Shown: positions 5,699 to 44,075 of the stretch, piece after piece
How positions within the stretch are numbered: position 1 is the first letter of the stretch
Layout: each line of letters opens with the position of its first letter
Assembly (NCBI GenBank): GCA_964368275.1
Contig: CAYJAQ010000004.1
Span: 1 to 48,506 of the forward strand
DNA: 48,506 nucleotides
Source: an uncultured Staphylococcaceae bacterium
GTDB lineage: Bacteria > Bacillota_I > Bacilli_A > ML615J-28 > CAG-313
Direction: 5' to 3'
Notes under the pieces: model-generated
Told to the model about the DNA's origin: nothing
What the model saw: the letters and a program-made list of their open reading frames with translations, nothing else
Database searches by the model: none
Made by a program: the position numbers and the translations under genes

Positions 5699-5827
5699 AT
5701 TTATATCACCGATTTAGTATATTCTTGTTATTTTATTCGGTATAGTCGATTACCTAATAACAAATGCACATGTTTCAATTGGCAAAAAGGGTTGTTTGTG
5801 GTATACTAGAAGAAGAAGGAGATTTAT

Positions 5828-6448
5828 ATGCAAGATATTTATTTATTAGGAAAAAAGATTATTATTGAAAAATCCCCAATTGTTCTTAATTATCGTGGTG
5901 AACAAAACTGGCAAGACTACTTTATGGTTATGGCTGGTAATTGGACCTATGACAATGGTTTCTTAATTGGCACCGAAATAGAGAATAAAGGTGGTATATT
6001 ATATACAAAAGAATGCTATGACTTTGATATAATGTTAACTTTTAAATGCCAAACTGTTTTGCCAGCAACGCGAGATTTAAATGCTCTTTGGTGCAGTAAC
6101 TGGGATAATTCCGCTGATTATTTGTCAGATGGTTATGTTTGTGGTTTAAATGGTTGGTATGACCATTTATCAGGAATTGAAAAATGTGGTGAACATGGTT
6201 TCTATGCTTCAACCTCATTGTATAAGTATGTTCCGGGAACTGAAGTAGAAATAACTTGTGGTTCAATTAATGGTCATTGCTTTTTATTAGTTGATGGAAA
6301 ATTAGTCTTAGAGATTGTTGATGATTTCCCATTAACCAGTGGCCATGCTGGCTTTTCTCCGTATTGTACAAGTTTGAAGATTCGTGATGTTACAATTCGT
6401 AAGATATGTTGGGAAAAACGTCTCCAAAGTTATGAAAAGGAGTTCTAG
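5828..6448 (+). CDS. Hypothetical cytoplasmic beta-rich protein
   Basis: The ORF encodes 206 aa with an AGGAG RBS. An extended -10 (TGGTATACT) lies upstream. No family was assigned with confidence. Confidence 0.6.
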   Translation: MQDIYLLGKKIIIEKSPIVLNYRGEQNWQDYFMVMAGNWTYDNGFLIGTEIENKGGILYTKECYDFDIMLTFKCQTVLPATRDLNALWCSNWDNSADYLSDGYVCGLNGWYDHLSGIEKCGEHGFYASTSLYKYVPGTEVEITCGSINGHCFLLVDGKLVLEIVDDFPLTSGHAGFSPYCTSLKIRDVTIRKICWEKRLQSYEKEF

Positions 6449-6504
6449 TTTTTAGTTTATTTTTAAGTATCTAATATATAATATTGTTAGATTGAGGTAA
6501 TGGT

Positions 6505-7179
6505 ATGAAATTATTATTGGTAGAAGATGAAAGAGAGATTGCCAGTGCGGTTGCTAAAGTACTACGTCATAATAATTATTTAGTAGACGTGGTGTATGAT
6601 GGCGAAGAAGCTCTTGATTATTTAGCGTGTGCTGAATATGATGCTGTCATTTTAGATGTAATGATGCCCAAACTAGACGGAGTATCAGTCGCAAAAGAAC
6701 TCCGAAAAAATGGTAACAATGTACCAATTTTAATGCTGACAGCGAAGGCGGAGATTGATGATCGGGTGTTAGGGCTTGATGTGGGTGCAGATGATTACTT
6801 AACTAAGCCCTTTGCAATGAAAGAACTATTAGCACGGATTCGCTCAGTAACTAGACGTAAAGATACTAGCATTAAAGAATATGTTTTTGCTGATATTTCT
6901 CTTAATCCCCAAAATTATGAGTTATCGACAAGTTATAAGAAGTGCCGCTTATCAAGTAAAGAGTTTCAGATGTTAGAATTATTAATGAATAATGCGAATG
7001 TGTTAATATCCACTGAGCGATTTATGGAGAAAGTTTGGGGTTTTGACACGGAGGCAGAGATAAATGTAGTATGGGTGTACATTTCAGCAATTAGAAAAAA
7101 GCTTGATTTCATTAGTGCAAATGTAACAATAAAAGCAGTTAGAGGTTTGGGATATCAATTGGAGAATAAACATGATTAG
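6505..7179 (+). CDS. OmpR-family response regulator
   Basis: A receiver domain (LLVEDE ... DAVILDVMMPKLDG ... LTAK) is followed by a winged-helix output domain (SSKEFQMLELLM ... VRGLGYQL). Confidence 0.9.
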   Translation: MKLLLVEDEREIASAVAKVLRHNNYLVDVVYDGEEALDYLACAEYDAVILDVMMPKLDGVSVAKELRKNGNNVPILMLTAKAEIDDRVLGLDVGADDYLTKPFAMKELLARIRSVTRRKDTSIKEYVFADISLNPQNYELSTSYKKCRLSSKEFQMLELLMNNANVLISTERFMEKVWGFDTEAEINVVWVYISAIRKKLDFISANVTIKAVRGLGYQLENKHD

Positions 7180-8386
7180 AAAATTACAAAAACGTTTTAT
7201 TGTAGTAGCTATGACAGCAGTTACCATTGTCCTTGCCATTATTATGGTAGCTATTAATTTAATTAATTATATAACAGTAACAAATTTTGCTGATGACGTG
7301 CTTGATAATCTTGTTAGAGGTAATGGTCAATTCTTACCTCAACCTGCTCCCCCTAAAGATATGCGGCCACCAAGTGATAAAATGACGGGTGAAACGCGTT
7401 TCGAAACTCGTTATTTCTCAGTAATTTTAGATAATAACCATGAAGCAGTAAAAATTGATACAACGCATATCTTCGCTGTAGATCAGACAAACGCTGTTTT
7501 GTATAGTCAAGAAGTATTAACAACTAAAAGAACATCGGGTTATTTGGATATTTATCGTTATCGTAAAGAACTGACGGAATCAGGTACATTAATAATCTTT
7601 ATTGATTGTTCAAAGCAATTGATGACAGTAAAAGATTTTTTAATAGGAAGTATAATTGTATCGGGTCTAGGAATGGTAGCTGTTACATTAGTTGTAATAC
7701 TATTATCAAAAAGGGCTATTTTGCCAATTGCTAAGAGTTATGAAAAGCAAAAAAGCTTTGTGACTGATGCTAGCCATGAACTAAAAACCCCACTTACGAT
7801 TATTTCGGCTAATAATGAAATACTGGAATTAGAAGTTGGTACAAATGAATATACACGCATGATTGCTAAACAGGTAGAACGAATGGCAACCATGACCAAA
7901 AACTTATTATTATTATCAAAAATTAGTGAAGACGATTTTAAAAATGAATGTGAAAAGTTTGTATTAACAGATGCTATTATCGATGTTACTGATTCATTTA
8001 GAACAGTGATTAGCGATAAACGGGTGTTTGAGGTTACTATTGATAATAATATTAATTATTATGGCAACGAAAAGCTAATTAGACAAATGATTTTTATTTT
8101 GCTCGATAATGCATATAAGTATTCCCAAAAAGCAATTTATGTTAAAATAAGTAGTGAAAAAGGACGAATAATGATTGAGTGTCGAAATGATTGCGAAGGC
8201 GTAGAAATAGGTAACCTAAATAAATATTGTGATCGTTTCTACCGTTCAGCTATTTCTCGTGCATCGAGTATTGAAGGAAGTGGCATCGGCTTATCCATTG
8301 CTAAAGAGATAATCGATATGCATAAGGGAAAACTTACTTTATCAAGTAAAACTGGTCATGATTTCATTGCTGAAATTGAATTATAA
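7172..8386 (+). CDS. Sensor histidine kinase
   Basis: It overlaps the response regulator gene by 8 nt and has two TM helices. It shows an H-box (SHELKTPLT), an N-box (DNAYKYS) and a G-box (GSGIGLSIAKEI). Confidence 0.9.
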   Translation: MIRKLQKRFIVVAMTAVTIVLAIIMVAINLINYITVTNFADDVLDNLVRGNGQFLPQPAPPKDMRPPSDKMTGETRFETRYFSVILDNNHEAVKIDTTHIFAVDQTNAVLYSQEVLTTKRTSGYLDIYRYRKELTESGTLIIFIDCSKQLMTVKDFLIGSIIVSGLGMVAVTLVVILLSKRAILPIAKSYEKQKSFVTDASHELKTPLTIISANNEILELEVGTNEYTRMIAKQVERMATMTKNLLLLSKISEDDFKNECEKFVLTDAIIDVTDSFRTVISDKRVFEVTIDNNINYYGNEKLIRQMIFILLDNAYKYSQKAIYVKISSEKGRIMIECRNDCEGVEIGNLNKYCDRFYRSAISRASSIEGSGIGLSIAKEIIDMHKGKLTLSSKTGHDFIAEIEL

Positions 8387-8400
8387 ATGTCTTCAAAAGT

Positions 8401-8432
8401 AAAAAATCTTCATATGAAGATTTTTATTTTTT
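8401..8432 (+). terminator. Rho-independent terminator after the two-component genes
   Basis: AAAATCTTCA-TA-TGAAGATTTT followed by a T-run. Confidence 0.75.
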
Positions 8433-8500
8433 ACTGATACTTTTAAGTTAATTTAAGTTTAATGTTTTATAATGTTATTGTAGAAAAAGAGGTGCTGACT

Positions 8501-9190
8501 TTGGATAAGGGTAGTGTGTTTAGACGATATGAGTTAAAGTTCATCATTAATAATCAGCAGTACAATGCTATTATAGATACAATTAATCAAAACATGGAGT
8601 TAGATGAGCACGGGAAAAGCTTGGTATGTAATTTATATTTTGATACTTCCAATAGTTTATTAATCCGTCGCTCGATTGAAAAGCCAGTTTACAAAGAGAA
8701 AATTCGTCTTCGTAGTTATGGTATACCTAAATCAAATGATTTAGTTTTTATTGAATTAAAGAATAAGTATGACGGAATTGTTTATAAAAGAAGAATGGCG
8801 TTGCCAGAAAAACAAGCAATGACGGGAATAATTAGTGGCCAAATTGACGATAGTAGTCAAATTGCAAAAGAGATAAATTATTTCTTGAAGCGATATGGTA
8901 AAATTGAGCCATCTGTAGTCTTGAGTTATCAGCGAAGTGCTTATTATGGGATTGGTAATCATGATTTGCGCTTGACTTTTGATACTAATTTGTTATATCG
9001 TGATTATGACTTAAACTTAACTAAAGGAATATATGGTACACCATTATTGGGCGATGATGAAATACTAATGGAAGTAAAAAGTAGCACTGCTTTTCCCCTT
9101 TGGCTAGTACATGAATTAAGTAGTAATAAAATATATAAAAGACCGTTTTCCAAATATGGAATGGCTTATCAATTAAAGAAAGAGGCATAA
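8501..9190 (+). CDS. VTC-domain (Vtc4-like triphosphate-tunnel) putative polyphosphate polymerase domain protein
   Basis: Alternating charged beta-strand motifs are present: YELKF, KEKIRLRSY, FIELKNK, YKRR and ILMEVK. The start is set at an in-frame TTG at 8501, 6 nt after AGAGGTG. The track start at 8462 overlaps a TATAAT box (8467-8472). Confidence 0.7.
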   Translation: MDKGSVFRRYELKFIINNQQYNAIIDTINQNMELDEHGKSLVCNLYFDTSNSLLIRRSIEKPVYKEKIRLRSYGIPKSNDLVFIELKNKYDGIVYKRRMALPEKQAMTGIISGQIDDSSQIAKEINYFLKRYGKIEPSVVLSYQRSAYYGIGNHDLRLTFDTNLLYRDYDLNLTKGIYGTPLLGDDEILMEVKSSTAFPLWLVHELSSNKIYKRPFSKYGMAYQLKKEA

Positions 9191-9192
9191 AC

Positions 9193-9873
9193 ATGGAAAA
9201 GATATTTGATTCTATTATAGCAACTAAAATAACTTTCTGGGGATTCATTGTAATAATGGCAGTGGCATTTTTGTTAGGAATTTGCTTAGCCGTTACGACC
9301 GCATATAAAAGTCGTTATTCTAAAAGCTTTGCAATTACCTTAGCATTGATTCCTGCTGTAGTTTCGTTAGTAATTATAATGGTTAATGGTAATTTAGGTG
9401 CAGGAATTGCTGTTGCGGGTGCGTTTAGTTTAGTAAGATTTCGCTCTTCTCCTGGCACCGCTAAAGAAATATGTGCAATTTTTGTTGCGAGTACAGCTGG
9501 TTTAGCATTAGGAATGGGATATGTCACTTATGCTGTTATCTTTGTAGTTCTAATCGCTTTTGTTTTTTGGGTGCTTTCAGTTACTAATTTTGGCAACACT
9601 TCGGTACATACAAAAGATAAGGTTCTAAAAATAACTATTCCTGAAGATTTAAACTATAGTGATGTATTTATTGATGTATTCAAGAAATATACTACCAAAC
9701 AGCAGCTTGTAAAAGTAAAAACAACTAATATGGGAAGCATGTTCAAACTAACCTACCAGATTACTCTTGTTGGAGGTATAAGCGAGAAGGAATTCATTGA
9801 CGAATTGCGCTGCTTGAATGGTAATTTAGAAGTAATGTTAAGCATAGAAGAACATTCTCAAAGTGAACTGTAA
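9193..9873 (+). CDS. DUF4956-family membrane protein
   Basis: It starts 2 nt after the VTC gene. It has about 4 TM helices, an AFSLVRFRS motif, and a roughly 90-aa soluble C-terminal domain. Confidence 0.7.
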   Translation: MEKIFDSIIATKITFWGFIVIMAVAFLLGICLAVTTAYKSRYSKSFAITLALIPAVVSLVIIMVNGNLGAGIAVAGAFSLVRFRSSPGTAKEICAIFVASTAGLALGMGYVTYAVIFVVLIAFVFWVLSVTNFGNTSVHTKDKVLKITIPEDLNYSDVFIDVFKKYTTKQQLVKVKTTNMGSMFKLTYQITLVGGISEKEFIDELRCLNGNLEVMLSIEEHSQSEL

Positions 9874-9887
9874 AAGGAGTTGATCGT

Positions 9888-11627
9888 GTGAAACTTAAAC
9901 ATAAATTTGTGATGATGCTTGTGGTATTAATAATGGTGTTGTTAGTGTCATGTGATGCCCCCAATCCAGTAGTTCCAGGCGAAGTAGAACTACCTGATAC
10001 TGATATTGCTGTTCCTAATTCTGACGATATGTTTAGTAATAAGGATAATAAGGTGTCATATGCGGAAGATGAAAAAGTTGCTATTTCACTGAATGGTACT
10101 TCAATCAGCTGTGATAGCAGCAATGTAGTAATTAATGGCCAAAATGCGACAATAACCAAAAAAGGTATCTATGAAGTAACGGGTACACTTTATGATGGCC
10201 AAATTGTTGTCAATATTGATAATGCTGATAAAGTAACCGTTATTTTAAATAATGCAAGCATAACAGCTACATCGACTGCTCCTGTATATGTCTTATCAGC
10301 CGATAAAGTGTTCCTAAATATTGTTGGGAATAATGAATTAATAACTACAAACAATTATATTGCAATAGACGATAACAATATTGATGGTACTATTTTTGCT
10401 AAAGACGATTTGACAATTAATGGAACAGGCACTCTTAGCGTGACTAGTTCGTATGGTAATGGAATTGTCGCTAAAGATGATTTGATTATTGTTGGTACTA
10501 CCCTTAATGTTAATGCTGCTGAAGATGGTTTTGATGTTAATGATAGTGTTAGAATGAATAATTGTAATGTTAATATTAAAGCTGAGCATGATGGTATTCA
10601 CTGCGAAAATGATGAAGATACTACGTTAGGCTATATTTACATTGATGGCGGAACTTACAATATTACAGGAATGCTTGATGGTATTCAGGCAAGTTCAACT
10701 ATTCAGATTATAAAAGGCAATTTTACCATAAAAACTGGTGGTGGTAGTGCTAATTCTAGCAGCAATAGTGGTGGATACTGGGGTAGTGTTACAACTGAGT
10801 CAATGAAGGGAATAAAAGCTACTAGTAATATTGTCATAACAAGTGGAGAATTAACGCTTGATACATCAGATGATGCCATTCACTCTAACGGCTCTATTCA
10901 ACTAGATGGTGGTTCTTATGATGTCACAAGTGGTGATGATGGTATTCACGCCGATAGTACTATTATTATTAACGGTGGTATAATCACTATTTCCCAAAGT
11001 TATGAAGGAATAGAAGCCCAGAATATTACGATAAATGGTGGCACAATTAAAATAAGTGCTACTGATGATGGTTTAAATGCGGCTGGTGGTAAGGATGGCT
11101 CAGGGCTTGGCCGACCGGGTTTTGGCTCATTTAATCCTAACAGTAATTGTTTTATTACAATTACGGGGGGAAATCTTTCAGTAAATGCAAGTGGTGATGG
11201 AATTGACGCAAATGGTGCTCTTTACGTTTCTGGCGGTACTACGATTGTTGAAGGGCCAACATCAAGTGGAAATGGTGCCCTTGACTACGATGGAGTTGCT
11301 CAAATTACCGGCGGTGTTTTTGTAGCAATTGGTAGCAGTGGAATGGCCCAAAACTTTGGTAATACCTCATCACAAGCATCAATTCTATATAATATGAATA
11401 GTGCTCAAAATGCTAATACCGAAATAACGATTATGGATAGCAATAATGATATTTTGTTCACACATACTGCTAAAAAACGTTATCAGTCGGTCTTAATTAG
11501 TGGACCTTTTATTACAATTGGTAAAACATATAAGCTAGCTTTAGGTACTACTACGACAAATATTACGATGTCCAGCCTAATTTATTCGATTGGTGGAGGA
11601 ATGGGTGGTGGCGGTCGACCACGCTAA
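9888..11627 (+). CDS. Lipoprotein with parallel beta-helix repeats (Cthe_2159-like carbohydrate-binding family)
   Basis: It has a GTG start after AAGGAG, and a signal peptide with lipobox LLVSC. It shows repeated DDGIHA, DDAIHS, GDGIDANG and DDGLNA turns and SGG-rich loops. The C-terminal tail is GGGMGGGGRPR. Confidence 0.7.
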   Translation: MKLKHKFVMMLVVLIMVLLVSCDAPNPVVPGEVELPDTDIAVPNSDDMFSNKDNKVSYAEDEKVAISLNGTSISCDSSNVVINGQNATITKKGIYEVTGTLYDGQIVVNIDNADKVTVILNNASITATSTAPVYVLSADKVFLNIVGNNELITTNNYIAIDDNNIDGTIFAKDDLTINGTGTLSVTSSYGNGIVAKDDLIIVGTTLNVNAAEDGFDVNDSVRMNNCNVNIKAEHDGIHCENDEDTTLGYIYIDGGTYNITGMLDGIQASSTIQIIKGNFTIKTGGGSANSSSNSGGYWGSVTTESMKGIKATSNIVITSGELTLDTSDDAIHSNGSIQLDGGSYDVTSGDDGIHADSTIIINGGIITISQSYEGIEAQNITINGGTIKISATDDGLNAAGGKDGSGLGRPGFGSFNPNSNCFITITGGNLSVNASGDGIDANGALYVSGGTTIVEGPTSSGNGALDYDGVAQITGGVFVAIGSSGMAQNFGNTSSQASILYNMNSAQNANTEITIMDSNNDILFTHTAKKRYQSVLISGPFITIGKTYKLALGTTTTNITMSSLIYSIGGGMGGGGRPR

Positions 11628-11699
11628 AAACAACTTTAATAATTTCCTTTATATTAGCACTCCAATTTTGGGGTGCTTTATTATGCACAGTGTGATTAG

Positions 11700-11728
11700 T
11701 TGACTATTTCGCTAAAAACTGCTATAAT
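11700..11728 (+). promoter_or_regulatory. Near-consensus sigma-A promoter of the acyl-activation operon
   Basis: TTGACT (11700-11705), a 17-nt spacer, then TATAAT (11723-11728). Confidence 0.75.
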
Positions 11729-11770: not shown

Positions 11771-13714
11771 ATGGAAAGAGTTTTGAAGATTGTACGTGAA
11801 TCTGTGAAAAAATTGAATCAAAGCGACTATACATTTAAAGCTATTTTTGATGTGATGTTTGGCTTTAGTGATAATATTATTGCTGAAAAACTTGTAGGTA
11901 CATCAATTAGCTATACTACGTATCATGAATGTCAAGAACTAATTGAAAAGACCTCAGCTTATTATCAAATGATTTTTCAACATATTCCAACAGAATCATA
12001 TATTGGTTTAAAATTAGGAAATTCTCTTGAATGGATAGTAACATTTTGGTCCCTTCTTCAAAGTGGCTATCGTCCAGTCTTAATAAATACCCAATTAGAT
12101 AGTGAAATGATTACTAATGTTTTAACAAAATTAGCTGTTAAAGCGGTAATTACAGATTATCCGGAATTAGGTGATAATGAGTATAATGCCTATAAATTAA
12201 TCGAAGAGGCGAAAAACTTTCAATCGACAGGTTCTGCTCCGAAATGGTCAAATAGTATTGTTCTATCAACATCAGGAACATCAGGTCCTGCTAAGATTTG
12301 TCTGTATGAAGGAAAAGCGATTTGCATGCAAATCTTAAAGAGTTGGTCAATTGTTAAGCAAAATAAAGACATTCGTTCCTTCCATAAAGGCAAAATGAAA
12401 CTTTTAGCCTTTTTGCCATTTTATCATATCTATGGCTTATCAGCTGTTTTACTATGGTTTGGTTTTTTTGGAAGAACTTTTGTTTTCTTGAAGGATAATA
12501 ATCCCGAGAATATCACGAGAACTTGTCAACTCCATCAAGTTACACATGTATTTGCTGTGCCAATTCTTTGGAATACAGTTGCTCAGTCAATCACCAAACA
12601 AGCAGCACGCGATAATTTGTCCGAACGTTTAAAAAAAGGATTAGCAATAAGTGCTAAATGGCAAAACACATTCCCTCGTTTGGGGCGTTTTTTAGCAAGC
12701 AAAGTATTATTCAAAAAAGTCCAAAAAAAGGTATTTGGTCCTTCAATTAAGTTTTGTATTTCTGGTGGAGGGTATGTTCTTGAAGATACTTTAAAAATAG
12801 TAAATGCCATTGGTTATTCCCTTCATGTCGGTTATGGTATGACGGAAATTGGGATAACATCGGTCGAACTTGCTAGTAATTATAGCCAACTAATAAAAGG
12901 ATCAATCGGTCAGCCTTTAAAGGGAATTACTTATCAGATAGTCAATAATGAATTACAAGTAAAAGGTGATTCACTTTTTACCGCAATCTTTCAAAATGAG
13001 TGTTTTGTTCTACGAAGGGAAGAGGAATGGTTTAAAACGGGTGATATTGCCTATCAAGATTCCAAGGGTAATTATTTTATTAATGGACGTTTAGATGATA
13101 TTATTATCGGAGAAAACGGCGAAAATATTAATCCTGATGATTTAGAACGCTATTTTACACTAGATTATGTTAAACGTTTTTCGATATTAGGCGTTCCCAA
13201 CGAAGATGGTAATCTTGAAGTTACACTAGTTGCGCAGATTAGTAAACAGGTAACTAATCATCAAGTTAGAAAACTATTTCAAAATATTAATGCCATCAAT
13301 GCGACAATGCCTATTCATCAACAAGTACGTCGCATTATTGTGACTACTGATAGTATAGCACTTGAAGAATCTTTAAAAGTAAATCGAAAAAAATTGATTA
13401 GTAAAATATTAAAAAATGAGCTTCATGAAGTTGAATTTAAGACTGAGGAAGCAAATAATATTAATTATGAAGATGCACGTATTACCTCAATAAAAAAAAG
13501 TCTAAAGGAAACGATTGCGGCAGTACTAACTAAACAAGCTGAGGACATTCATGATGATGATCACTTTATTATGGATTTAGGGGGTAATAGCCTTGAATAT
13601 TTTGTTCTCATTTCTCGAATTGAAGAGGCTTTTAATATTAAAATTACTTTTACTAATAATACAGTTTTAAATACAGTGAATGAGTTTTGTTTATATATTG
13701 ACAAGAATGAGTAG
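11771..13714 (+). CDS. ANL-superfamily adenylating enzyme fused to a C-terminal carrier (PCP/ACP) domain
   Basis: Motifs present are STSGTSGPAK (P-loop), GYGMTE, FKTGDIA and NGRLDDIIIGENGENINP. The C-terminal roughly 80 aa carries DLGGNSLEY, a phosphopantetheine attachment motif. Confidence 0.85.
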   Translation: MERVLKIVRESVKKLNQSDYTFKAIFDVMFGFSDNIIAEKLVGTSISYTTYHECQELIEKTSAYYQMIFQHIPTESYIGLKLGNSLEWIVTFWSLLQSGYRPVLINTQLDSEMITNVLTKLAVKAVITDYPELGDNEYNAYKLIEEAKNFQSTGSAPKWSNSIVLSTSGTSGPAKICLYEGKAICMQILKSWSIVKQNKDIRSFHKGKMKLLAFLPFYHIYGLSAVLLWFGFFGRTFVFLKDNNPENITRTCQLHQVTHVFAVPILWNTVAQSITKQAARDNLSERLKKGLAISAKWQNTFPRLGRFLASKVLFKKVQKKVFGPSIKFCISGGGYVLEDTLKIVNAIGYSLHVGYGMTEIGITSVELASNYSQLIKGSIGQPLKGITYQIVNNELQVKGDSLFTAIFQNECFVLRREEEWFKTGDIAYQDSKGNYFINGRLDDIIIGENGENINPDDLERYFTLDYVKRFSILGVPNEDGNLEVTLVAQISKQVTNHQVRKLFQNINAINATMPIHQQVRRIIVTTDSIALEESLKVNRKKLISKILKNELHEVEFKTEEANNINYEDARITSIKKSLKETIAAVLTKQAEDIHDDDHFIMDLGGNSLEYFVLISRIEEAFNIKITFTNNTVLNTVNEFCLYIDKNE

Positions 13715-13720
13715 GTAAGT

Positions 13721-14350
13721 ATGAATAAATTTATATTGGGGTTTGTAAAAGTAACAGGAGTACTTCCTGCTGTTATTTACTTAAAACGGAAAGTATATTA
13801 TGAGAATAAAGAAATACAAGGTAAGAAGCTTACCGGTAAAACAATGATTGTCTCTAATCATACTGGCTTGCGCGATTATGTAACTTATCTTTTTCTCTTT
13901 TTCCGCTATTCATTGTGGTTTTTAGCAGCGGAAGTGTTATACAAAAAGCCAAATAATGCAAGACTGATTAAACACTTAGGAGCTATTCGCGTTAATCGGG
14001 ATACCCATGAGGTTGATTTTTTTGCCAATGCCATTAGTGTTTTAGAAGAAAATAAGATACTTTTGGTTTTTCCAGAAGGACGTATTTCGGCGACAAAAAA
14101 ACTATTACCATTTAACACAAGTGCCGCGTATATTGCTTATATGGCAAATGCAAAAATAGTACCAGTTGTTACGGATGGTAATTATGGTTTCTTTAAAAGA
14201 GTCCATGTAATGATTGGAGAACCGCTTTATTTGCGCGATTACCTTGATAAACAATATTTAGAAAAAAATGATATCATCAAGTTAAATGATATTTTACGTA
14301 ATAGAATACTAGAATTACAGCAGAAATTAGCTAATGAGTTAAAAAAATAG
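13721..14350 (+). CDS. PlsC/LPLAT-family acyltransferase (copy 1)
   Basis: It has an N-terminal hydrophobic anchor, an HX4D motif (NHTGLRD), and FPEGR. Confidence 0.85.
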   Translation: MNKFILGFVKVTGVLPAVIYLKRKVYYENKEIQGKKLTGKTMIVSNHTGLRDYVTYLFLFFRYSLWFLAAEVLYKKPNNARLIKHLGAIRVNRDTHEVDFFANAISVLEENKILLVFPEGRISATKKLLPFNTSAAYIAYMANAKIVPVVTDGNYGFFKRVHVMIGEPLYLRDYLDKQYLEKNDIIKLNDILRNRILELQQKLANELKK

Positions 14351-14358
14351 GAGGACCC

Positions 14359-15054
14359 ATGGCAACTACGAAAAAAAGAATCTATCCCAATTGTCGGTTC
14401 TTCCGGATATTTAATCTTAAAATGTTTGTGCTAGATTTTGTCAAAATAACCGGTTGGTTACCATTTTTATTAGTATATCGACCTAAATATATTTTTCAAA
14501 ATAAAAAGTTGCAAAACCGGATAATCAAAGGTCGGGCAATTGTGATTGCTAATCACAATAGTTTAATGGATCCCATTTGTTTATGCTATGCTTTTGCATT
14601 CCGCCGGATTCGTTACCTTGCTGCGGAAGTGCTTTTTGAAAAAAGTCGTCTATTCGCTTGGATGATTCGATCGGTTGGCTGCTTACGAATTAATCGGAAT
14701 ATCGTTGATTTAAAAAGTATGCGCCGCTCGCTTGATGAACTAAATGAAGATGGTGTTATTAGCTTATTTCCTGAAGGAAAATTAAGTAGCGATAATAGTA
14801 CAATTCAATCTTTTAAATCCGGTGTTATTTTATTAGCTCTTAAATCTAATGCACCAGTTATTCCTGTTTATATTGCTTATACCAATAAATCATTTCACCG
14901 AAAGCACATTGTTATCGGTGAACCAATTGATATCACAAAGTACTGTGCTAATAAAATTCCCACAATTGCGGAAATTGAGAAGCTTAGTAACGTTTTAAGA
15001 GAAGCCGAAGAGAAATTGCTTAATTTATATGAGCAAACTGTAAAGAAGGATTAA
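14359..15054 (+). CDS. PlsC/LPLAT-family acyltransferase (copy 2, paralogue of copy 1)
   Basis: It has an HX4D motif (NHNSLMD) and FPEGK. The architecture and the shared AAEVL(Y/F) block match copy 1. Confidence 0.85.
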   Translation: MATTKKRIYPNCRFFRIFNLKMFVLDFVKITGWLPFLLVYRPKYIFQNKKLQNRIIKGRAIVIANHNSLMDPICLCYAFAFRRIRYLAAEVLFEKSRLFAWMIRSVGCLRINRNIVDLKSMRRSLDELNEDGVISLFPEGKLSSDNSTIQSFKSGVILLALKSNAPVIPVYIAYTNKSFHRKHIVIGEPIDITKYCANKIPTIAEIEKLSNVLREAEEKLLNLYEQTVKKD

Positions 15055-15063
15055 GGAAGTAAT

Positions 15064-16545
15064 ATGAAGACAACATTTTCAGATTTCAGTAAATATACTG
15101 ATCAAGAAACATTTAAGAAAATTGTTTATTTACCAACAATAGCTGAATTGTGGCAAAAAGCAGTTAATGATAATGCTCAAGAATATGCTTTTTATTATCA
15201 AGATGAAGTAATTACTTATGAACAAGCTGAGAATGATGTTGCTAAACTACGCTTTCAACTAGCAAAATTAAAGTTAGCAAAAAGGGCTCATATTGGCATA
15301 CTATTAAAGAATGATTATAGTTTTGTCAAGAGTTTCTTAGCAGTAACTACTTTAGGTTATGTTGCGGTTTTACTTCCATATCAAACGCCTAAAGAAGATA
15401 TTCAATATAATGTAGCGTTTTGCGACATTGAAAAACTAATTTACGATAATTCGTCATTAGGTAAGATTAGTGAATTTTCGGCGGAATTTCTGGACAAATT
15501 GATTAATATAGATAACCTACCACTCGAAGATTATCTGCCTTGCCAAAAATGTCAAAAGACCGATCCTGCAGTTATTATTTTTGCTCACGGGACGGGTGTT
15601 TCATGTCAAGCAACTTTGCTAAATCACGGTGCTGTAACAAGAGGAGTAGTGAATGGCTGCCTAGGTTATCACGATGTTTTTAAACAACGCTATCTTTCAG
15701 TAATTCCTCTAACTCATGTTTTTGGGTTAATTAGGAATTTATTAACTAGTATTTATACCGGTTCAACTTTGGGTTTCTGTCCTGACGTGATGCGACTTTT
15801 CCGAGTTATGAAAACATTTAAACCAACAATTTTGGTTATTGTACCTGAACTTGCTAAAATGATTCTCACGGTAATTAAACAAAGAGGTATTGATAATGTT
15901 GGCGGCGAATTGAAAAACATTATTTGTGGTGGAGCCGAAGTTGGTGAAGAACTACCCAAAGCATATAAAGAATTTGATATTGAAATTTTCCCTGGTTACG
16001 GTTTGACTGAAGCTGCTAATATGGTTAGTGGTAATCCTAACAGTATCGACTATCCCCTTTCGGTTGGTCTTCCTTTTCCAGAACAAGAGTTGAAGATAGT
16101 GAATGATGAACTTTTGATAAAAGGTGATAACGTGATGGATGGTTATTATAACGATTCTGATGCTACCAATAAAGTGCTAGTAGACGGTTGGTTAAAAACT
16201 GGTGATTTAGCACGCTTTGATGAATTAGGTCAACTCTATATTATTGGCCGAAAGAAGAATATTATTATTTTTGGTAATGGTGAAAATATTGCGCCAACAG
16301 CATTAGAGCATCTCATAAATAAAGATGACGCAGTGAGAGATTCGCTAGTATATGCTAGCACCAGTGCTTTAGGTGTCGCAACCATAGTTGCCGAAGTGTT
16401 AATGAATGAAGTCTATCTACATAAACAAAATGTACTAGACAAAGAAGCTTACTTTGAAAATTTACTAAATGAAGTAAATAAGAAATTGCCTACTTATGCT
16501 AGAATTAGCCAAATAATAATTCGTACAAATGATTTTTCTCGCTGA
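15064..16545 (+). CDS. ANL-superfamily AMP-ligase homologue with a degenerate P-loop
   Basis: GYGLTEA, LKTGDLA and IGRKKNIIIFGNGENIAP are present. The P-loop position reads FAHGTGVSCQA (no Lys), and the protein ends before the usual C-terminal catalytic Lys. Confidence 0.8.
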   Translation: MKTTFSDFSKYTDQETFKKIVYLPTIAELWQKAVNDNAQEYAFYYQDEVITYEQAENDVAKLRFQLAKLKLAKRAHIGILLKNDYSFVKSFLAVTTLGYVAVLLPYQTPKEDIQYNVAFCDIEKLIYDNSSLGKISEFSAEFLDKLINIDNLPLEDYLPCQKCQKTDPAVIIFAHGTGVSCQATLLNHGAVTRGVVNGCLGYHDVFKQRYLSVIPLTHVFGLIRNLLTSIYTGSTLGFCPDVMRLFRVMKTFKPTILVIVPELAKMILTVIKQRGIDNVGGELKNIICGGAEVGEELPKAYKEFDIEIFPGYGLTEAANMVSGNPNSIDYPLSVGLPFPEQELKIVNDELLIKGDNVMDGYYNDSDATNKVLVDGWLKTGDLARFDELGQLYIIGRKKNIIIFGNGENIAPTALEHLINKDDAVRDSLVYASTSALGVATIVAEVLMNEVYLHKQNVLDKEAYFENLLNEVNKKLPTYARISQIIIRTNDFSR

Positions 16546-16579
16546 ATGATTTAGATTCGCGAGATGAGATGAGGACAAT

Positions 16580-16816
16580 ATGATATTTAATAAACTAAAA
16601 GAAATATTTATTGAGATGTTGGGCAGTGCTAATGTCCCTACTGTAATCACCGAAGATTCAACATTATTTAGTGATTTGGGATTTACATCAGTTACAATGC
16701 TGTACATGGCGATGGCGATTGAAGAAACTTTTAATATTGAAATTGATAATTTTGAGGTTAACCAATTTTGCACTGTCCGTGATGTCTGTAGCTATATTGA
16801 AAATGCCCAAAAATAA
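16580..16816 (+). CDS. Stand-alone acyl/peptidyl carrier protein
   Basis: The 78-aa acidic product has a DLGFTSVTMLYMAMAIEE motif with Ser at the attachment position. Confidence 0.8.
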   Translation: MIFNKLKEIFIEMLGSANVPTVITEDSTLFSDLGFTSVTMLYMAMAIEETFNIEIDNFEVNQFCTVRDVCSYIENAQK

Positions 16817-17499
16817 TGGGGTTTATAATGGATAAAATTAAAATTTTAATTGCTGATGTTTCGGAATTGTCTATCGACGATGCTAAACATTTTGAATATG
16901 TCTCTGCTGATGTTCTAGAACGTCTCACTGATTATCAAATTGAACTTGATCAAAAACGCACATTAGGGGCAGAACTCTTGTTAATCAGAGCTCTTAAGGA
17001 TGACAAAAATATAATTAAAAGCAGAATTAATTATCAATATAATGAGTATAAGAAGCCATTTCTAAAAGATTTTCCCTCTTATCACTTCAATAAAAGTCAT
17101 AGTGGGGTTTATGCCGGTGTTACGCTTGCTGAAATTGAAGTAGGTTTAGACATCGAACAGATTCGCCCGATTAACCGAAAGATAATTCACAAAACGATGA
17201 ATTCTCTTGATGCAAAAAAATGCGAAGTGATGAATGATCAAGAATTTGCAGATTATTTTTTCCATGATTGGACAATAAAAGAGAGTTATCTTAAAACTTT
17301 AGGGGTAGGTATCACAAAGGACTTACGTCAAGTGATTATTGATTATACTAATAAAACTGTTTGTATGGAAGGCTACAAAGTAGGAAATTTTCATTCATTA
17401 AAAATTGCGGATTTCTATTACTTAGCTGTGACTTATTTTGGTGATAAACGTGATTACACTATTTTTGAAGTAAGTCTAACACAGCCTAGATTTCATTAG
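16816..17499 (+). CDS. Sfp-type 4'-phosphopantetheinyl transferase
   Basis: A TAATG overlap links it to the carrier protein gene. Motifs are SHSGVYAGV, VGLDIEQI and WTIKESYLKTLG. An alternative start exists at 16828. Confidence 0.8.
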   Translation: MGFIMDKIKILIADVSELSIDDAKHFEYVSADVLERLTDYQIELDQKRTLGAELLLIRALKDDKNIIKSRINYQYNEYKKPFLKDFPSYHFNKSHSGVYAGVTLAEIEVGLDIEQIRPINRKIIHKTMNSLDAKKCEVMNDQEFADYFFHDWTIKESYLKTLGVGITKDLRQVIIDYTNKTVCMEGYKVGNFHSLKIADFYYLAVTYFGDKRDYTIFEVSLTQPRFH

Positions 17500-17510
17500 T
17501 GGAGGTAAAT

Positions 17511-17960
17511 ATGACTAATTATGCTCAAATAAAGCAACAACTTTATGCCCTAACAGAAGGAGTTGATAACTCGATTAGTAATTATGCTAATACAGCAGCT
17601 TTGCTTTTTAATGAACTTGCTGATGTTAGTTGGGTAGGCTTTTATTTTGTTGATGATGATGAGTTAATATTAGGACCCTTTCAAGGCTTACCTGCTTGTG
17701 TTAGAATTAAGAAAGGCCATGGTGTATGTGGTGAAGCATGGGTAAAAGGGCAGACCTTAGTCATTCCAAATGTTTGCGAATATGCCAATCATATTGCTTG
17801 TGATAGCCGTTCAATGGCCGAGATTGTAATTCCAATTAGAAAGAAAAATGCGATTGTTGGGGTAATGGATATTGATAGTTATCAAGAGAAGCGTTTTACA
17901 AGTGTTGATCAAAAAGGACTAGAATCATTAGTCGAAGTCATTGAGAACTTTATCAAGTAG
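17511..17960 (+). CDS. GAF-domain protein (free methionine-R-sulfoxide reductase MsrC/YebR-like)
   Basis: Motifs are WVGFYF, LGPFQGLPACVRI, GHGVCGEAW, HIACDSRSMAEIVIPI and GVMDIDS. The start is the ATG at 17511, behind GGAGG. Confidence 0.75.
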   Translation: MTNYAQIKQQLYALTEGVDNSISNYANTAALLFNELADVSWVGFYFVDDDELILGPFQGLPACVRIKKGHGVCGEAWVKGQTLVIPNVCEYANHIACDSRSMAEIVIPIRKKNAIVGVMDIDSYQEKRFTSVDQKGLESLVEVIENFIK

Positions 17961-17995: not shown

Positions 17996-18076
17996 ATTTA
18001 ACAAGCAAGAAAAATTGTTATTAAAAAGCATTTATTAAAAAATAATGATATAATATGCCAAAAGGAGACATTGATA

Positions 18077-20401
18077 ATGGAAAAAATGATTAAGAATAGC
18101 CGTTTTGCTCATAAAGAGATATTGGCTGATATAAATGATGATGCAAATACAAGATGGTTAAATAAGCCAGTCCTATCTACCAAGGACATTTATAATGGAG
18201 ATACTTTAGAAGGTGTAATTGGTCCAAAAGATGGTTCCATGACTCTTTCTAATAAATTCGCAAATTTTGGTAATAGTAGTTTATTAATTACCGCGAACAC
18301 TCAAGTTGAGAATGTTTTTCCACGTCCTGCCTGCGGAGTTACTTTTCAATTGCCTCATGTAGACTATTCGGAATATAACCGATTAAGTGCTTGGGTTTAT
18401 ATTGAATCTGTTGGCCATCAAAATTTCTATTTTCATTTTTCGTTTGGCAATAATGGTGCTGAAGAAAATCATGCTCCTAGTTTAGTACCAAATGAATGGA
18501 ATCATGTGGTCTGGGAAGTGTCCCATATTAAACGCAATGATGTTACTAAGTTAAGTGTTACCCCTTTCTTAATGGGATGTCCACCAGAAGGATTACCAGA
18601 ATTAAAAGTTTATATTCATAATATTCGCGCAGAACTGGTTAAACAAGATCATGATAAAGGTTGGCAATTAGATGATCGTATTGCGTATTGCCATACAGGT
18701 TACTTTAATAATGCTAAAAAAGTGGCATTAGTTGCGAGTACTCCCAATAAATCTTTTCAAGTATACAATTATAAAGAAGAATTGGTGTATGAAGGGCTTG
18801 TTAAAGGATGTAATTCTAGTCTAGGCTCCTTTTATGAACTTGATTTTTCTAGTTTGACAACTACTGGTGAGTATTATTTAAAGATTGATGAACGCAAGAC
18901 ACCGATGTTTGCAATTAATGATATGCCATACTTATCATCTATTTGGAAAAGTATGAATTTTTTACGAATGTTGCGCTGCGGCGAAGAAGTAGTTAATGTC
19001 CATAGTGCGTGTCATTTAAATTGCCGAACAGTTCATCCAAATGGTAGCAGTGTTCCCAATCATGGTGGTTGGCACGATGCTGGTGATGTTTCGCAGTTTG
19101 AAATTTGTACTGCTGAAATGGCTCAAGCAATTTTAGAACTAGCAGAGAAATATCAATATACTGATACCGATTTATATGAACGCTTGCTTGAAGAGGCTAA
19201 AGTTGGTATCAACTGGCTTTTACAAACACGCTTTGGTGATGGTTCACGAGCTTGTGCTGTAAGTTATTCGATTTGGCGCAGTAATGTTTTAAAACCAGAT
19301 AATAAGAGTGTCTTAATTAGTCAAGCGGAAAATGGTCCTTTTGAAAACTTATGTTCTGCTGCGGCACTTAGTGTTGCTGCCCAGATGTATAAAGAAAGTG
19401 ATGCGGTATTTGCTAAATGGTGTGCTAGAAGTGCTGTGGAAGATTATCAATTTGGAGTTGATGGTTATAAAAAAGGGATATATACAAAACGTTGGGGCAC
19501 CAATGTTGATGCTCAAGTAGTTGGTTGTGCTTGCATGACAGCTTGTGAATTATATTTACTTACTTGTGACAATAAATACATTAATGAAGCTTGCAATTTT
19601 GCAAATATCATCTTAGCTTGTCAACAGTCTGAATATCCAAGTTGGGATATTCCAGTACGAGGTTATTTTTATGAGGACCCTGCACATACTAGTATCTTAA
19701 CTTATGAACATCGTGGCCATGAACAGACACCGATTCAAGGCTTAGCACGTTTACTAGAAATTATGCCTAATCATAATGATGCAGAAAAATGGCGCCATGG
19801 TTTAGAATTATATGCTGAATACGTGATATGGTCAATTGATAAAGCACGACCATACAACCTTTTACCAGCACATATTTACGAAGTTGATAAACTAAATGCT
19901 GAAAGATTTACAATACCAGCGACTCATGGAACAATAGAAGAAGGCATGGCAAATTTAAAACAACAAGCGATGCATGGAATCAAGTTAAATGAAGGAGTTT
20001 ATTTGCGATTATTCCCGATAGCTGTTCAAAGAAGAGGTTATCATGCAACATTATTAAGTAAAGTTAAAGCTGTAACAATGATTGCCAAGGTTTTAGATAA
20101 AACAGAATTAGGGCAAATAGCGATTGATCAGTTAGAATGGATTTTCGGTAAAAATCCATTTGCTTCTTCAACTATGTATGGTGAGGGACACAACTTCCAT
20201 CCACTTTATGTTGCCTTTTCACGCCAAATGGTTGGTGCATTACCTGTTGGTATTAAGACATTGGGCGATGATGATGAACCATTCTGGCCCACAATTAATA
20301 ATGCTGTGTTCAAAGAAATTTGGGGTCATACAACGGGTAAATATCTTTGGGTCTTAGCAGACTTAGTTGAAATAGTTAATAAAAAATCACAGAAGATGTG
20401 A
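18077..20401 (+). CDS. Glycoside hydrolase family 9 protein, no signal peptide
   Basis: It shows the GH9 signature HGGWHDAGD. An Ig-like N-terminal module is typical of GH9 (AYCHTGYF ... YELDFSSLTTTGEYYLKI ... MFAIND), preceded by a roughly 200-aa extra N-terminal region. The start is the ATG at 18077, 9 nt after AGGAG. Confidence 0.8.
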   Translation: MEKMIKNSRFAHKEILADINDDANTRWLNKPVLSTKDIYNGDTLEGVIGPKDGSMTLSNKFANFGNSSLLITANTQVENVFPRPACGVTFQLPHVDYSEYNRLSAWVYIESVGHQNFYFHFSFGNNGAEENHAPSLVPNEWNHVVWEVSHIKRNDVTKLSVTPFLMGCPPEGLPELKVYIHNIRAELVKQDHDKGWQLDDRIAYCHTGYFNNAKKVALVASTPNKSFQVYNYKEELVYEGLVKGCNSSLGSFYELDFSSLTTTGEYYLKIDERKTPMFAINDMPYLSSIWKSMNFLRMLRCGEEVVNVHSACHLNCRTVHPNGSSVPNHGGWHDAGDVSQFEICTAEMAQAILELAEKYQYTDTDLYERLLEEAKVGINWLLQTRFGDGSRACAVSYSIWRSNVLKPDNKSVLISQAENGPFENLCSAAALSVAAQMYKESDAVFAKWCARSAVEDYQFGVDGYKKGIYTKRWGTNVDAQVVGCACMTACELYLLTCDNKYINEACNFANIILACQQSEYPSWDIPVRGYFYEDPAHTSILTYEHRGHEQTPIQGLARLLEIMPNHNDAEKWRHGLELYAEYVIWSIDKARPYNLLPAHIYEVDKLNAERFTIPATHGTIEEGMANLKQQAMHGIKLNEGVYLRLFPIAVQRRGYHATLLSKVKAVTMIAKVLDKTELGQIAIDQLEWIFGKNPFASSTMYGEGHNFHPLYVAFSRQMVGALPVGIKTLGDDDEPFWPTINNAVFKEIWGHTTGKYLWVLADLVEIVNKKSQKM

Positions 20402-33787: not shown

Positions 33788-33862
33788 TGGCACGCTTGGA
33801 GGGAATTGAACCCCCATCAGCAGGATCGGAACCTGCTACCTTATCCATTAGGCCACAAGCGC
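33788..33862 (-). tRNA. tRNA-Arg (anticodon CCG), CCA encoded
   Basis: I folded the reverse complement by hand into a 75-nt cloverleaf. The acceptor stem is 7 bp with one G-U, the D stem 4 bp and the T stem 5 bp. The anticodon stem GCAGG/CCTGC carries loop TTCCGAT. The 3' end is GCCA. Confidence 0.9.
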
Positions 33863-43016: not shown

Positions 43017-44075
43017 TTATTTTATATACACAGTAAAATTGTAATCAGTTTTAACATAAAAAGTGGCTAAATCGGCCATTTTTGAACCTTTTATGTCATT
43101 TAAATACATAACGTTGAAAATATCAACATTATCCTCAGCTAATTGCTTACGCATATCTTCTAACTTAGTTTGGACTGAATTTGCTAGCATTTGCTTTATT
43201 TGCTCTTCAGTCAAATGATCAGGATTACTAGTAATGGAAGCTTCCATGTCAATATTAACCACTAAAATATCTTTATCCAGATGTTTTTCAATGTTATATT
43301 CTTTTAGATAAATGGTTGTGTTCTCAATTTTTAGGGGAACTGATTCGAAATTATTAATATAGTTCATACCATCTAGGTTCTTAAAGCTATACATTGATAG
43401 GGCTAAATCGTTCTTTAAGAAACCATAGCCGGATACTTCTAGGGTTATGTAGAATTCTTTTTCTTTTTTAAACACATCTTTATTTACTGAAAGAATAGGA
43501 TACTTGTAAAAACGCTTAGGCAGCAATATGTCATTAGCAAGATCAAAATAAGTGGCAACTTGATGAGTGTGGTTAACTTTTTTGCCTGTAATTATGGTAT
43601 AAAAAGCAGTGATATCTGACATATTTTGAACTTGATATATATCTGCTAGTTTATCAGATGTAACAAATATTTCAAAAGTGGGATAATGATGAGGACTATT
43701 CTTAAATAATTCATAGGCTACAATAACATTGTGGCCGCTAAAGAAGCGTTCTGTGAAAATAACTGTTTTTACGTGATGGAGATCTAAAATAATGTCAGAA
43801 TTGCTGTCAATCTTTTCAATTGCATCAGCTATTGATGGACCGCGACCAATCGCTGTGAAACCTAAGGTCGAAGGCTCAGCTGTTCCAAGAGCAATATGTG
43901 AGAAATTGAGATTATTGATAATGTAGAACGTCACCTCGTATTCTAGCGTATCAATGTCGTAGTCAAGGCCAATACTAGCCACAAAAGTTATTTCATGAAT
44001 TTCAATATAATCATTACAGCCGCTTAATAGAATGCTTAAGATACTGATGAATAAAACTAAGAAGAACTTTCTCAT
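43017..44075 (-). CDS. Ger(x)C-family spore germination lipoprotein
   Basis: It has the lipobox LLSGC, is 352 aa, and is the last gene of the ger operon. It shows a TAATG overlap with the upstream gene. Confidence 0.8.
   Translation of the reverse strand: MRKFFLVLFISILSILLSGCNDYIEIHEITFVASIGLDYDIDTLEYEVTFYIINNLNFSHIALGTAEPSTLGFTAIGRGPSIADAIEKIDSNSDIILDLHHVKTVIFTERFFSGHNVIVAYELFKNSPHHYPTFEIFVTSDKLADIYQVQNMSDITAFYTIITGKKVNHTHQVATYFDLANDILLPKRFYKYPILSVNKDVFKKEKEFYITLEVSGYGFLKNDLALSMYSFKNLDGMNYINNFESVPLKIENTTIYLKEYNIEKHLDKDILVVNIDMEASITSNPDHLTEEQIKQMLANSVQTKLEDMRKQLAEDNVDIFNVMYLNDIKGSKMADLATFYVKTDYNFTVYIK

Follow-up and report, generated by a model that had tools for sequence, protein, structure and literature searches.

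A candidate VTC-type polyphosphate operon with a DUF4956 membrane protein, a Cthe_2159 lipoprotein and an adjacent two-component system in an uncultured Staphylococcaceae bacterium

Introduction

Bacterial inorganic polyphosphate (polyP) is textbook PPK1/PPK2 chemistry. We describe here a locus that may represent another route to this polymer, at positions 6505-11627 of a 48,506-nt stretch of DNA from an uncultured Staphylococcaceae bacterium (contig CAYJAQ010000004.1 of assembly GCA_964368275.1; this whole stretch is referred to as the window, and all positions are window coordinates). Its five open reading frames (ORFs), all on the + strand, encode a two-component system, a tunnel protein of the VTC family, a DUF4956 membrane protein and a lipoprotein of the Cthe_2159 family. 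The putative product is the same as that of PPK1 and PPK2, polyP made from a nucleoside triphosphate, but the folds and mechanisms are unrelated, and PPK genes have no dedicated membrane-protein or lipoprotein gene coupled to them.

The closest described bacterial systems contain the same pair of genes. Beside Gram-positive pel loci, paired VTC-like and DUF4956 genes have been described in an accessory cassette that also includes CotH and a DUF4832 glycosidase (10.1101/768473). Modelling of the S. intermedius proteins suggested a Vtc4-like polymerase and an MgtC-like transmembrane (TM) plus ACT protein, with no polyP assay reported, and deletion of the DUF4956 and CotH genes changed Pel levels and aggregation (PMC12345266; 10.1101/2024.04.20.589940). 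The NELoc-2 locus of C. perfringens carries two VTC genes, each followed by a gene for a 222-226 aa membrane protein mis-annotated as 'tubulin/FtsZ', with a CotH gene nearby (PMC2879425); from its size and location we infer that this membrane protein is DUF4956. A first-pass annotation of the window had stated that no bacterial VTC/DUF4956 pair has been characterised. This is true in the biochemical sense, but the pair has been described beside CotH and pel, and deletion mutants have been made in S. intermedius (10.1101/768473; PMC12345266).

As in these cassettes, the pair in the window has a secreted or surface protein as its companion (10.1101/768473; PMC12345266; PMC2879425). The locus differs from them in that its third gene encodes a Cthe_2159 lipoprotein instead of a CotH kinase, in possessing a two-component system and a repeat box of its own, and in being unlinked to pel. 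The VTC/DUF4956 pair is already known, widespread and annotated in databases; what is new here is the variant with Cthe_2159 and a two-component system, and the repeat box. We found no account in the literature of the combined arrangement of two-component system, VTC, DUF4956 and Cthe_2159, nor of the repeat box.

Results

Our leading, if tentative, reading is that the locus is a signal-controlled, self-contained operon encoding a membrane-associated VTC-type polyP polymerase module with its output aimed at the cell envelope. The response regulator gene (6505-7179; 224 aa, OmpR/PhoB family) overlaps the sensor histidine kinase gene (7172-8386; 404 aa) by 8 nt. These are followed by the VTC gene (8501-9190; 229 aa from the TTG at 8501), the DUF4956 gene (9193-9873; 226 aa) and the Cthe_2159 lipoprotein gene (9888-11627; 579 aa), which are separated by gaps of 2 nt and 14 nt, each of the two downstream genes having its own Shine-Dalgarno sequence. 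The five ORF positions and both gaps agree with the first-pass annotation, and the motifs picked out there (YELKF, KEKIRLRSY, FIELKNK, ILMEVK, FSLVRFR, LLVSC, DDGIHA, GDGIDANG and the GGGMGGGGRPR tail) are all present in the translations. The three family assignments made at that stage lie far above the Pfam thresholds: VTC (PF09359; E 5.8e-43, 147.6 bits against a cut-off of 23, profile positions 2-232 of 235), DUF4956 (PF16316; E 5.9e-13, 49.3 bits against a cut-off of 30.6, with 23 of 23 aligned homologues also matching) and Cthe_2159 (PF14262; E 9.1e-90, 300.9 bits over three stretches). The observed gene set and family matches are far beyond chance.

The gene neighbourhood was compared across species by taking one genome per GTDB species, calling ORFs in the best 80 of at least 597 confirmed relatives and searching these with the window proteins. 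Gut and rumen genomes, largely metagenome-assembled, contributed most of the 80 loci. The taxa included Lachnospiraceae, Oscillospiraceae, Ruminococcaceae, Christensenellaceae and a few Coriobacteriaceae, and among the isolates were Roseburia inulinivorans DSM 16841 and Mobilisporobacter senegalensis. DUF4956 was directly downstream of VTC in 80/80 loci, the longest-ORF calls of the two genes overlapping in most of them, and Cthe_2159 came next in 61 of the 75 loci whose sequence extended far enough for a decision. An orthologue-grade regulator/kinase pair (regulator E <= 1e-55, with matches from 1e-60 to 1e-90) adjoined VTC in 47/80 loci, and all five genes were found together in 39. In 29 loci this pair lay upstream on the same strand, in 14 it was upstream but divergent, and in the remaining 4 it was downstream. 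Since the two-component system has been kept through rearrangement, in three arrangements, we argue that it is functionally linked to the cassette. The proposal made in the first-pass annotation survived on the three points that we examined, namely the VTC-domain match, the tunnel residues and this co-occurrence of genes across genomes.

The cassette was found in varied genomic contexts, and separate look-ups with precomputed Pfam annotation agreed with this. When the ORFs flanking the VTC gene, as far as 7 kb upstream and 9 kb downstream of it, were clustered all against all in the 80 loci, no other neighbours recurred apart from generic ABC ATPases and an HtrA-like protease. The latter, a trypsin-PDZ protein, was encoded near the cassette in 6/80 loci (L016:2611-3696, L074:8109-9242, L062:11963-13177, L037:6605-7846, L080:5944-7332 and L076:15977-17653); in L016 its gene lies between the kinase and VTC genes, an arrangement reminiscent of secretion or envelope-stress regulons. 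In loci without Cthe_2159 the genes downstream of the pair were unrelated.

Regulation of the operon by the adjacent two-component system is the best-supported functional statement that can be made about it, because a conserved predicted box tracks the presence of that system. The regulator matches Response_reg (3.9e-31) and Trans_reg_C (3.1e-20), and the kinase matches HisKA (2e-13) and HATPase_c (3e-16), with two TM helices flanking an extracytoplasmic domain of ~120 aa and no HAMP domain. This sensor domain has motifs conserved across 38 orthologues and matches no Pfam sensor family, and neither protein reached the NCBIfam cut-off of any named system, PhoB/PhoR among them. Upstream of the VTC gene, a putative response-regulator box at 8442-8459 (+) consists of the direct repeat TTTAAGTT-AA-TTTAAGTT with a 10-bp period; it overlaps the -35 position, and the -10 hexamer TATAAT follows 8 nt downstream. 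The first-pass annotation had noticed this hexamer, which is indeed present, but at 8468-8473 (+) and not at 8467-8472. The box at 8442-8459 is the sole zero-mismatch match in the window.

When the upstream regions of related loci were aligned by eye, the box took the form TTTAAGTT-N3-TTTAAGGT, repeating every 10-11 bp, and ~8-10 nt beyond it came a -10-like hexamer. The 250 nt in front of VTC were scanned with a tolerance of one mismatch in each half-site, and the background was taken from the rest of the loci. The box was found in 37/76 loci, where 0.0043 per region was expected (~100-fold enrichment), and it was present in 30 of the 46 loci with an adjacent two-component system vs 7 of the 30 without. 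Judged by its sequence, the layout is that of a classic OmpR/PhoB-type activator site in place of a -35 element. The winged-helix regulator, the two direct repeats of 7-8 bp, spaced with a period of 10-11 bp and ending ~8 nt before the -10, and a probable autoregulatory copy are all as in PhoB/OmpR-type regulons, although the TTTAAGTT box is unlike the Pho box. The suggestion in the first-pass annotation that the adjacent pair may regulate these genes is strengthened by this conserved direct repeat at the VTC promoter.

The probable autoregulatory copy lies at the putative promoter of the two-component operon (6451-6482, +), where TTTAGTT (6451-6457) and TTTAAGT (6462-6468) form a repeat with an 11-bp period, followed after 8 nt by TATAAT (6477-6482). 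This degenerate copy of the box (6451-6468) was read by eye and fails the strict scan; its geometry is like that of the VTC promoter, and stricter boxes were found upstream of the two-component operon in 15/47 related loci. We tentatively regard 6451-6482 as the promoter of the two-component operon, with a regulator box.

A second subgroup of VTC operons, whose two-component system is more distant (regulator E ~1e-60, kinase E ~1e-35), has a different direct repeat, TTCAAT-N5-CTTCAAT (L033:9890-9995, L036:793-898, L038:7747-7852, L040:697-802, L043:9902-10007, L053:2416-2521, L060:9902-10007 and L082:5247-5352). After this repeat there is a conserved inverted repeat, CCTCCTGTAC...GTACAGGAGG, in which the 3' arm is the VTC Shine-Dalgarno sequence and the 5' arm partly coincides with a TGTACAAT -10-like element. 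It has 14 predicted pairs with little covariation, and could be either a hairpin that sequesters the Shine-Dalgarno sequence or a palindromic operator.

Membership of the tunnel protein in the VTC family is solid. The protein is basic (isoelectric point (pI) 9.2), soluble and free-standing. An AlphaFold (AF2) model built on 23 homologues, with a mean predicted local distance difference test score (pLDDT) of 90.3 and a predicted TM-score (pTM) of 0.86, has a triphosphate-tunnel (TTM) fold, with a closed eight-stranded beta-tunnel and a C-terminal plug helix. A Foldseek search of the PDB with this model returned the tunnel domains of yeast Vtc4, Vtc3 and Vtc2 as its top 13 matches (E 1.7e-13, TM-score 0.73), with bacterial CYTH proteins and other triphosphate-tunnel enzymes ranked below these. 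The bacterial VTC profile also found Vtc4 (PDB 3g3q) by sequence in HMMER (E 7.7e-9), in an alignment that ended short of the C-terminal catalytic residues, and a sequence search of the PDB with a C-terminal VTC fragment and its profile did not map these residues. Comparison of the bacterial VTC with fungal Vtc4 fragments by hhalign aligned the full length (probability 97.4%, 224 columns), and the native Vtc4 numbering was checked against the offsets of the full-length chain 8I6V_E.

In this alignment, R9 of the window protein corresponds to R196 of yeast Vtc4, E11 to T198, K13 to K200, R69 and R71 to R264 and R266, E85 to E279, K87 to K281, K96 and R98 to K294 and R296, Y143 and R145 to Y359 and R361, R157 to R373, E191 and K193 to E426 and K428, and S217 and K218 to S457 and K458, K458 being catalytic in Vtc4 and E426 a metal ligand. 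All of the mapped residues are invariant in 81/81 sequences that are overall 45-55% identical, except Y143 (79/81); in two stretches this conservation is partly by construction, as the loci had been retrieved with the patterns KEKLR.RSY and RRS..KP.Y. The tunnel Lys, Arg and Glu residues singled out in the first-pass annotation are therefore kept on alignment, including the equivalent of Lys458. Further invariant lysines (K65, K67 and K89) make the predicted tunnel more basic than that of Vtc4. From this sequence and model evidence, polymerase activity is our best guess for the VTC protein.

The yeast VTC complex (PDB 3G3Q/3G3R, 7YTJ, 8I6V) belongs to the same Pfam family and is the best fold match in the PDB, with K200, R264, R266, K281, K294, R296, R361, R373, E426 and K458 all kept here, and in the window too the gene for the enzyme adjoins one for a membrane protein. 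The two systems differ in that Pfam finds no SPX domain and no DUF202 TM domain in any of the five window proteins, in that the DUF4956 partner is unrelated to Vtc1, in the Glu in place of Thr198 and the extra tunnel lysines, and in their control, which here is putatively by a two-component system and in yeast is by inositol pyrophosphates. The label 'eukaryote-type' given to the domain in the first-pass annotation is weakened. The family comprises 4,539 clusters at 90% identity (E <= 1e-5) and 9,090 clusters at 50% identity (E <= 1e-3), and among the matches listed the top ones were all short, single-domain bacterial-type proteins.

Two public proteins from outside the window have other architectures. 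P0505 (351 aa) has a VTC domain at residues 124-337 behind an N-terminal receiver-like domain (Response_reg 23.2 bits, below the cut-off), and its sequence hints that some relatives may place the enzyme under direct phosphorelay control. P0400 (571 aa) joins a truncated VTC domain (residues 8-197) to the C-terminal part of Cthe_2159 and was considered as a fusion that might reveal an interaction; DUF4956 is missing from it, and it is most likely a deletion or assembly artefact and no natural fusion.

The DUF4956 protein was modelled by AF2 (pLDDT 73.6) with about five helices followed by a C-terminal beta-alpha-beta-beta-alpha-beta domain of ACT/ferredoxin-like type. The first-pass annotation had counted about four TM helices and a soluble tail; the tail is there, and the helix count should be raised to five in this model. 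In a fold search only the last ~85 aa found matches, which were to ACT/ferredoxin-like domains and were weak (E ~1e-2). By the positive-inside rule, the KSRYSK loop, the RFRS-PG-AKE loop and the ACT-like domain are cytoplasmic. Mean column identity is higher in DUF4956 (66%) than in the VTC enzyme (56%), and the invariant residues are found chiefly in helices 2-4 and the adjoining loops (VNGNxGAGxAVAGAFSLVRFRS-PG-AKE and GLxxGMG). Because this membrane core is so strongly conserved, above the enzyme itself, we suggest that DUF4956 has a role beyond that of a passive anchor.

The architecture of the DUF4956 model, an N-terminal helical membrane domain and a C-terminal cytoplasmic ACT-like domain, resembles that of the MgtC family (Salmonella MgtC, E. 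coli YhiD), although DUF4956 has its own invariant motifs, VNGNxGAG and FSLVRFRS-PG-AKE. Demonstrable membership of the MgtC family was considered and rejected: Pfam PF02308 was matched below threshold in 7/23 members (best E 0.026), and hhalign of DUF4956 against YhiD, itself a 133.7-bit match to Pfam MgtC, gave a probability of 0.15%. In the model, the MgtC likeness appears to be one of architecture alone. MgtC is linked to phosphate and ATP physiology. The S. intermedius DUF4956 homologue is assigned to MgtC by CDD, and the family is called MgtC-like in the literature (PMC12345266).

The third protein has a lipoprotein signal peptide with a lipobox, LVSC, ending in Cys (MKLKHKFVMMLVVLIMVLLVSC), and a lipobox is present in at least 53/61 Cthe_2159 partner proteins. 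Residues 68-287 match PDB 4PEU (E 8.6e-30), and the protein shares with Cthe_2159 of Acetivibrio thermocellus (4PEU/4PHB) the Pfam family and the right-handed beta-helix of the pectate-lyase superfamily. It differs from this relative in being lipobox-anchored, about twice as long, and provided with a Gly/Met-rich tail. About half of the Cthe_2159 partners have Gly/Met/Pro-rich tails ending in basic residues, and the Gly/Met-rich tail of the window protein ends in RPR. The mature lipoprotein has a pI of 4.16, 44 Asp residues and repeated D-x-G turns, and its homologues have a median pI of 4.15 and a median net charge of -51. A cation-loaded lipoprotein surface might bridge to polyP or to an acidic polysaccharide. 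The crystal structure of Cthe_2159 (4PEU family) carries bound calcium.

Discussion

The leading reading, in which the operon supplies a VTC-type polyP polymerase module whose output is aimed at the envelope, can be set out as five steps. The histidine kinase would sense an extracytoplasmic cue and phosphorylate the OmpR-type regulator. The regulator would then bind the TTTAAGTT repeats at the -35 position and turn on vtc-duf4956-cthe_2159, and probably its own operon. The VTC protein, whose fold and residues come from the model and alignment, would extend a phosphate chain from a nucleoside triphosphate with a divalent metal, as Vtc4 does. The DUF4956 partner, with its invariant VRFRS-PG-AKE loop and ACT-like domain facing the cytoplasm, may conduct the chain across the membrane, or may tether or gate the enzyme. 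On the outer face of the membrane, the acidic, Asp-rich lipoprotein would, most likely but speculatively, hold divalent cations and bind a surface polymer; if polyP is exported, it might bind this through cation bridges. We favour an envelope-directed output because the partners of the pair elsewhere, the secreted CotH kinase and the DUF4832 glycosidase, are also extracytoplasmic (10.1101/768473; PMC12345266).

A stronger form of the proposal, that VTC and DUF4956 are a synthesis-coupled polyP export machine with a conduit that evolved independently of the one in yeast, is unlikely in our judgement, and the support for export is confined to gene context. PolyP would then reach the outer face to be used or retained by the cation-loaded lipoprotein or, elsewhere, by CotH kinases.

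Several observations weigh against the envelope-directed polymerase. S. intermedius deleted for the VTC gene showed no phenotype when aggregation and Pel were assayed (PMC12345266), and our literature search found no biochemistry on any bacterial VTC protein. Homology of DUF4956 to Vtc1 was rejected at the sequence level, hhalign giving a probability of 0.15% with a Vtc1 query identical to 8I6V chain A. A VTC-like channel, as implied in the first-pass annotation, is not supported by this comparison or by the architecture of about five helices with an ACT-like cytoplasmic domain; TM helices joined to such a domain resemble MgtC, which acts as a regulator. The beta-helix had been proposed as a polyanion binder; direct binding does not fit a pI of 4.16 and the strongly negative charge of its homologues; because the lipoprotein is so acidic, direct binding of polyP is unlikely without bridging cations. 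Cthe_2159 is absent from 14/75 loci and an adjacent two-component system from 33/80, and VTC and DUF4956 are therefore the sole obligatory core. Finally, Glu11 of the VTC protein, invariant and at the position of Vtc4 Thr198, is at the second Glu position of the ExExK motif of hydrolases and would allow a hydrolytic or two-metal chemistry.

The most serious alternative, which we hold to be rather unlikely, is that polyP is made in the cytoplasm and is not exported. DUF4956 would then serve as a regulator or anchor of MgtC-like type, using its ACT-like domain to sense a metabolite and to adjust either the enzyme or phosphate/ATP homeostasis, and the lipoprotein would have a separate role with surface carbohydrate or cations within the same regulon. 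The SPX domain and the parts of the yeast channel, the DUF202 TM domains, are absent here, the ACT-like domain is placed in the cytoplasm, and the acidity of the lipoprotein also suits this reading. The weak Pfam matches to MgtC in 7/23 DUF4956 members point the same way, as does the CDD assignment of the S. intermedius homologue, whose authors favour cytoplasmic polyP (10.1101/2024.04.20.589940; PMC12345266); set against these, kinship with MgtC was unconfirmed by hhalign. In one relative (56% identity; L001:1-9613 and L002), a VTC/DUF4956 pair without the lipoprotein has as divergent neighbours pstS-pstC-pstA-pstB-phoU, a Na/Pi cotransporter-PhoU fusion and a two-component pair, the sole direct genomic link to phosphate homeostasis that we saw; no pst cluster recurs in the 80 loci. 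What speaks against a purely cytoplasmic system is that the pair is repeatedly tied to surface or secreted proteins, Cthe_2159 in most of the loci judged and CotH and DUF4832 elsewhere, and that the membrane core of DUF4956 is conserved beyond the needs of a tether.

Less probable again is that the VTC protein is no polymerase, and hydrolyses or converts a triphosphate (tripolyphosphate, polyP, a nucleoside triphosphate or a nucleotide signal), with its partners taking part in signalling or an envelope-stress response. Most bacterial CYTH/TTM enzymes hydrolyse or otherwise convert triphosphate substrates. In hydrolytic tunnel enzymes, four glutamates forming an acidic patch make a second metal site, whereas Vtc4 is basic there, leading the chain out of the tunnel (PMC4641920). 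The invariant Glu11 stands at the position of the ExExK glutamate that helps to form this site in AtTTM3, a tripolyphosphatase that has the tunnel-centre residues of Vtc4 in common yet lacks polymerase activity (PMC4641920), and conserved tunnel residues are for this reason no proof of polymerisation. The HtrA-like protease that accompanies the two-component system in 6/80 loci would also be at home in a stress response. However, by motif register Glu11 is the single acidic, hydrolase-like residue among the four acidic-patch positions, the other three (R9, K96/R98 and K193) being basic like those of Vtc4. The Lys458 equivalent, which Vtc4 needs for catalysis and the plant hydrolase can do without (PMC4641920), is invariant, the extra lysines add to the basic character of the tunnel, and both sequence and fold are nearer to Vtc4, Vtc3 and Vtc2 than to any hydrolytic tunnel enzyme.

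The weakest alternative, and an improbable one, is that the operon buffers Ca2+/Mg2+ at the membrane, with polyP as chelator, DUF4956 as an MgtC-like factor, the beta-helix as a cation sink and the kinase sensing cations like PhoQ: the extremely acidic lipoprotein with its D-x-G turns, the pectate-lyase-like fold of Cthe_2159 (PMC9210967) and the MgtC-like architecture would fit, but no cation transporter and no known cation-sensing domain is present, and the idea largely re-reads the envelope-directed polymerase and is not an independent mechanism.

If VTC proteins polymerise phosphate in these bacteria, they would be a third class of bacterial polyP synthase, common in gut Clostridia. PolyP has known effects on host cells, and if the product crosses the membrane this would explain how bacteria place polyP outside the cell and would be the first dedicated extracytoplasmic polyP pathway. 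Were export true, two separate origins of synthesis-coupled polymer translocation, both built on the same enzyme, would be implied. The conserved regulator box provides a direct experimental handle on the regulation of the operon.

Additional features of the locus and window

The VTC gene probably starts at the TTG at 8501. This codon is preceded by a GAGGTG Shine-Dalgarno sequence at 8489-8494, and the N-termini of 22 homologues align there, which backs the start chosen in the first-pass annotation. Public gene calls start instead at the ATG at 8462 (242 aa), a codon between the regulator box and the -10 hexamer that has no ribosome-binding site. Because this ATG is inside the promoter and the TTG fits the homologues, the database entries for this VTC protein probably hold 13 spurious N-terminal residues.

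On the 3' side of the kinase gene, a hairpin with a U-run at 8395-8433 (+) is weak and AT-rich, and we read it as a leaky terminator. It has a predicted energy of -12.6 kcal/mol (z = -3.49), and none of 200 shuffled sequences was as stable. The terminator scan left it uncalled, with fewer than three G-C pairs, and of the terminator proposed here in the first-pass annotation, the hairpin is real and the strength is wanting. The operon is closed by an intrinsic terminator found by the same scan at 11656-11677 (+), and a promoter scan found the next promoter, a strong one, at 11700-11728 (+); together these set the operon apart from an unrelated acyl-activation/acyltransferase cluster.

Rfam gave no match in the cassette region, and a structured RNA leader was rejected as a reading; a defence system was likewise rejected, as the VTC, DUF4956 and Cthe_2159 proteins match no anti-phage defence model in PADLOC. 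NCBIfam has no model for these three proteins. There were no pst, ppk or ppx genes among the annotated ORFs of the window, which is AT-rich (~33% GC); its germination and cellulase genes suggest a spore-forming, Clostridium-like source associated with plant fibre.

Upstream, a 206-aa ORF (5828-6448, +) has its own promoter-like site at 5779-5807. It matches no significant Pfam family, the best hint being to a 3-keto-disaccharide hydrolase/LamG-like domain (E 0.054), and it was rejected as a part of the module, having no homologue in any of the 80 loci. Downstream, the next operon (11771-17960, +) comprises genes for two AMP-binding enzymes, one of them (647 aa) fused to a carrier domain, and for two PlsC-type acyltransferases, an Sfp-type phosphopantetheinyl transferase and a GAF protein, and looks like a small carrier-protein-dependent pathway of lipid or acyl modification. 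Further along, the window contains a GH9 cellulase with a CelD_N domain (18071-20401, +), a single tRNA gene (33791-33862, -) that is its sole Rfam match, a gerA-type spore-germination operon (43017-46469, -) and ordinary housekeeping genes.

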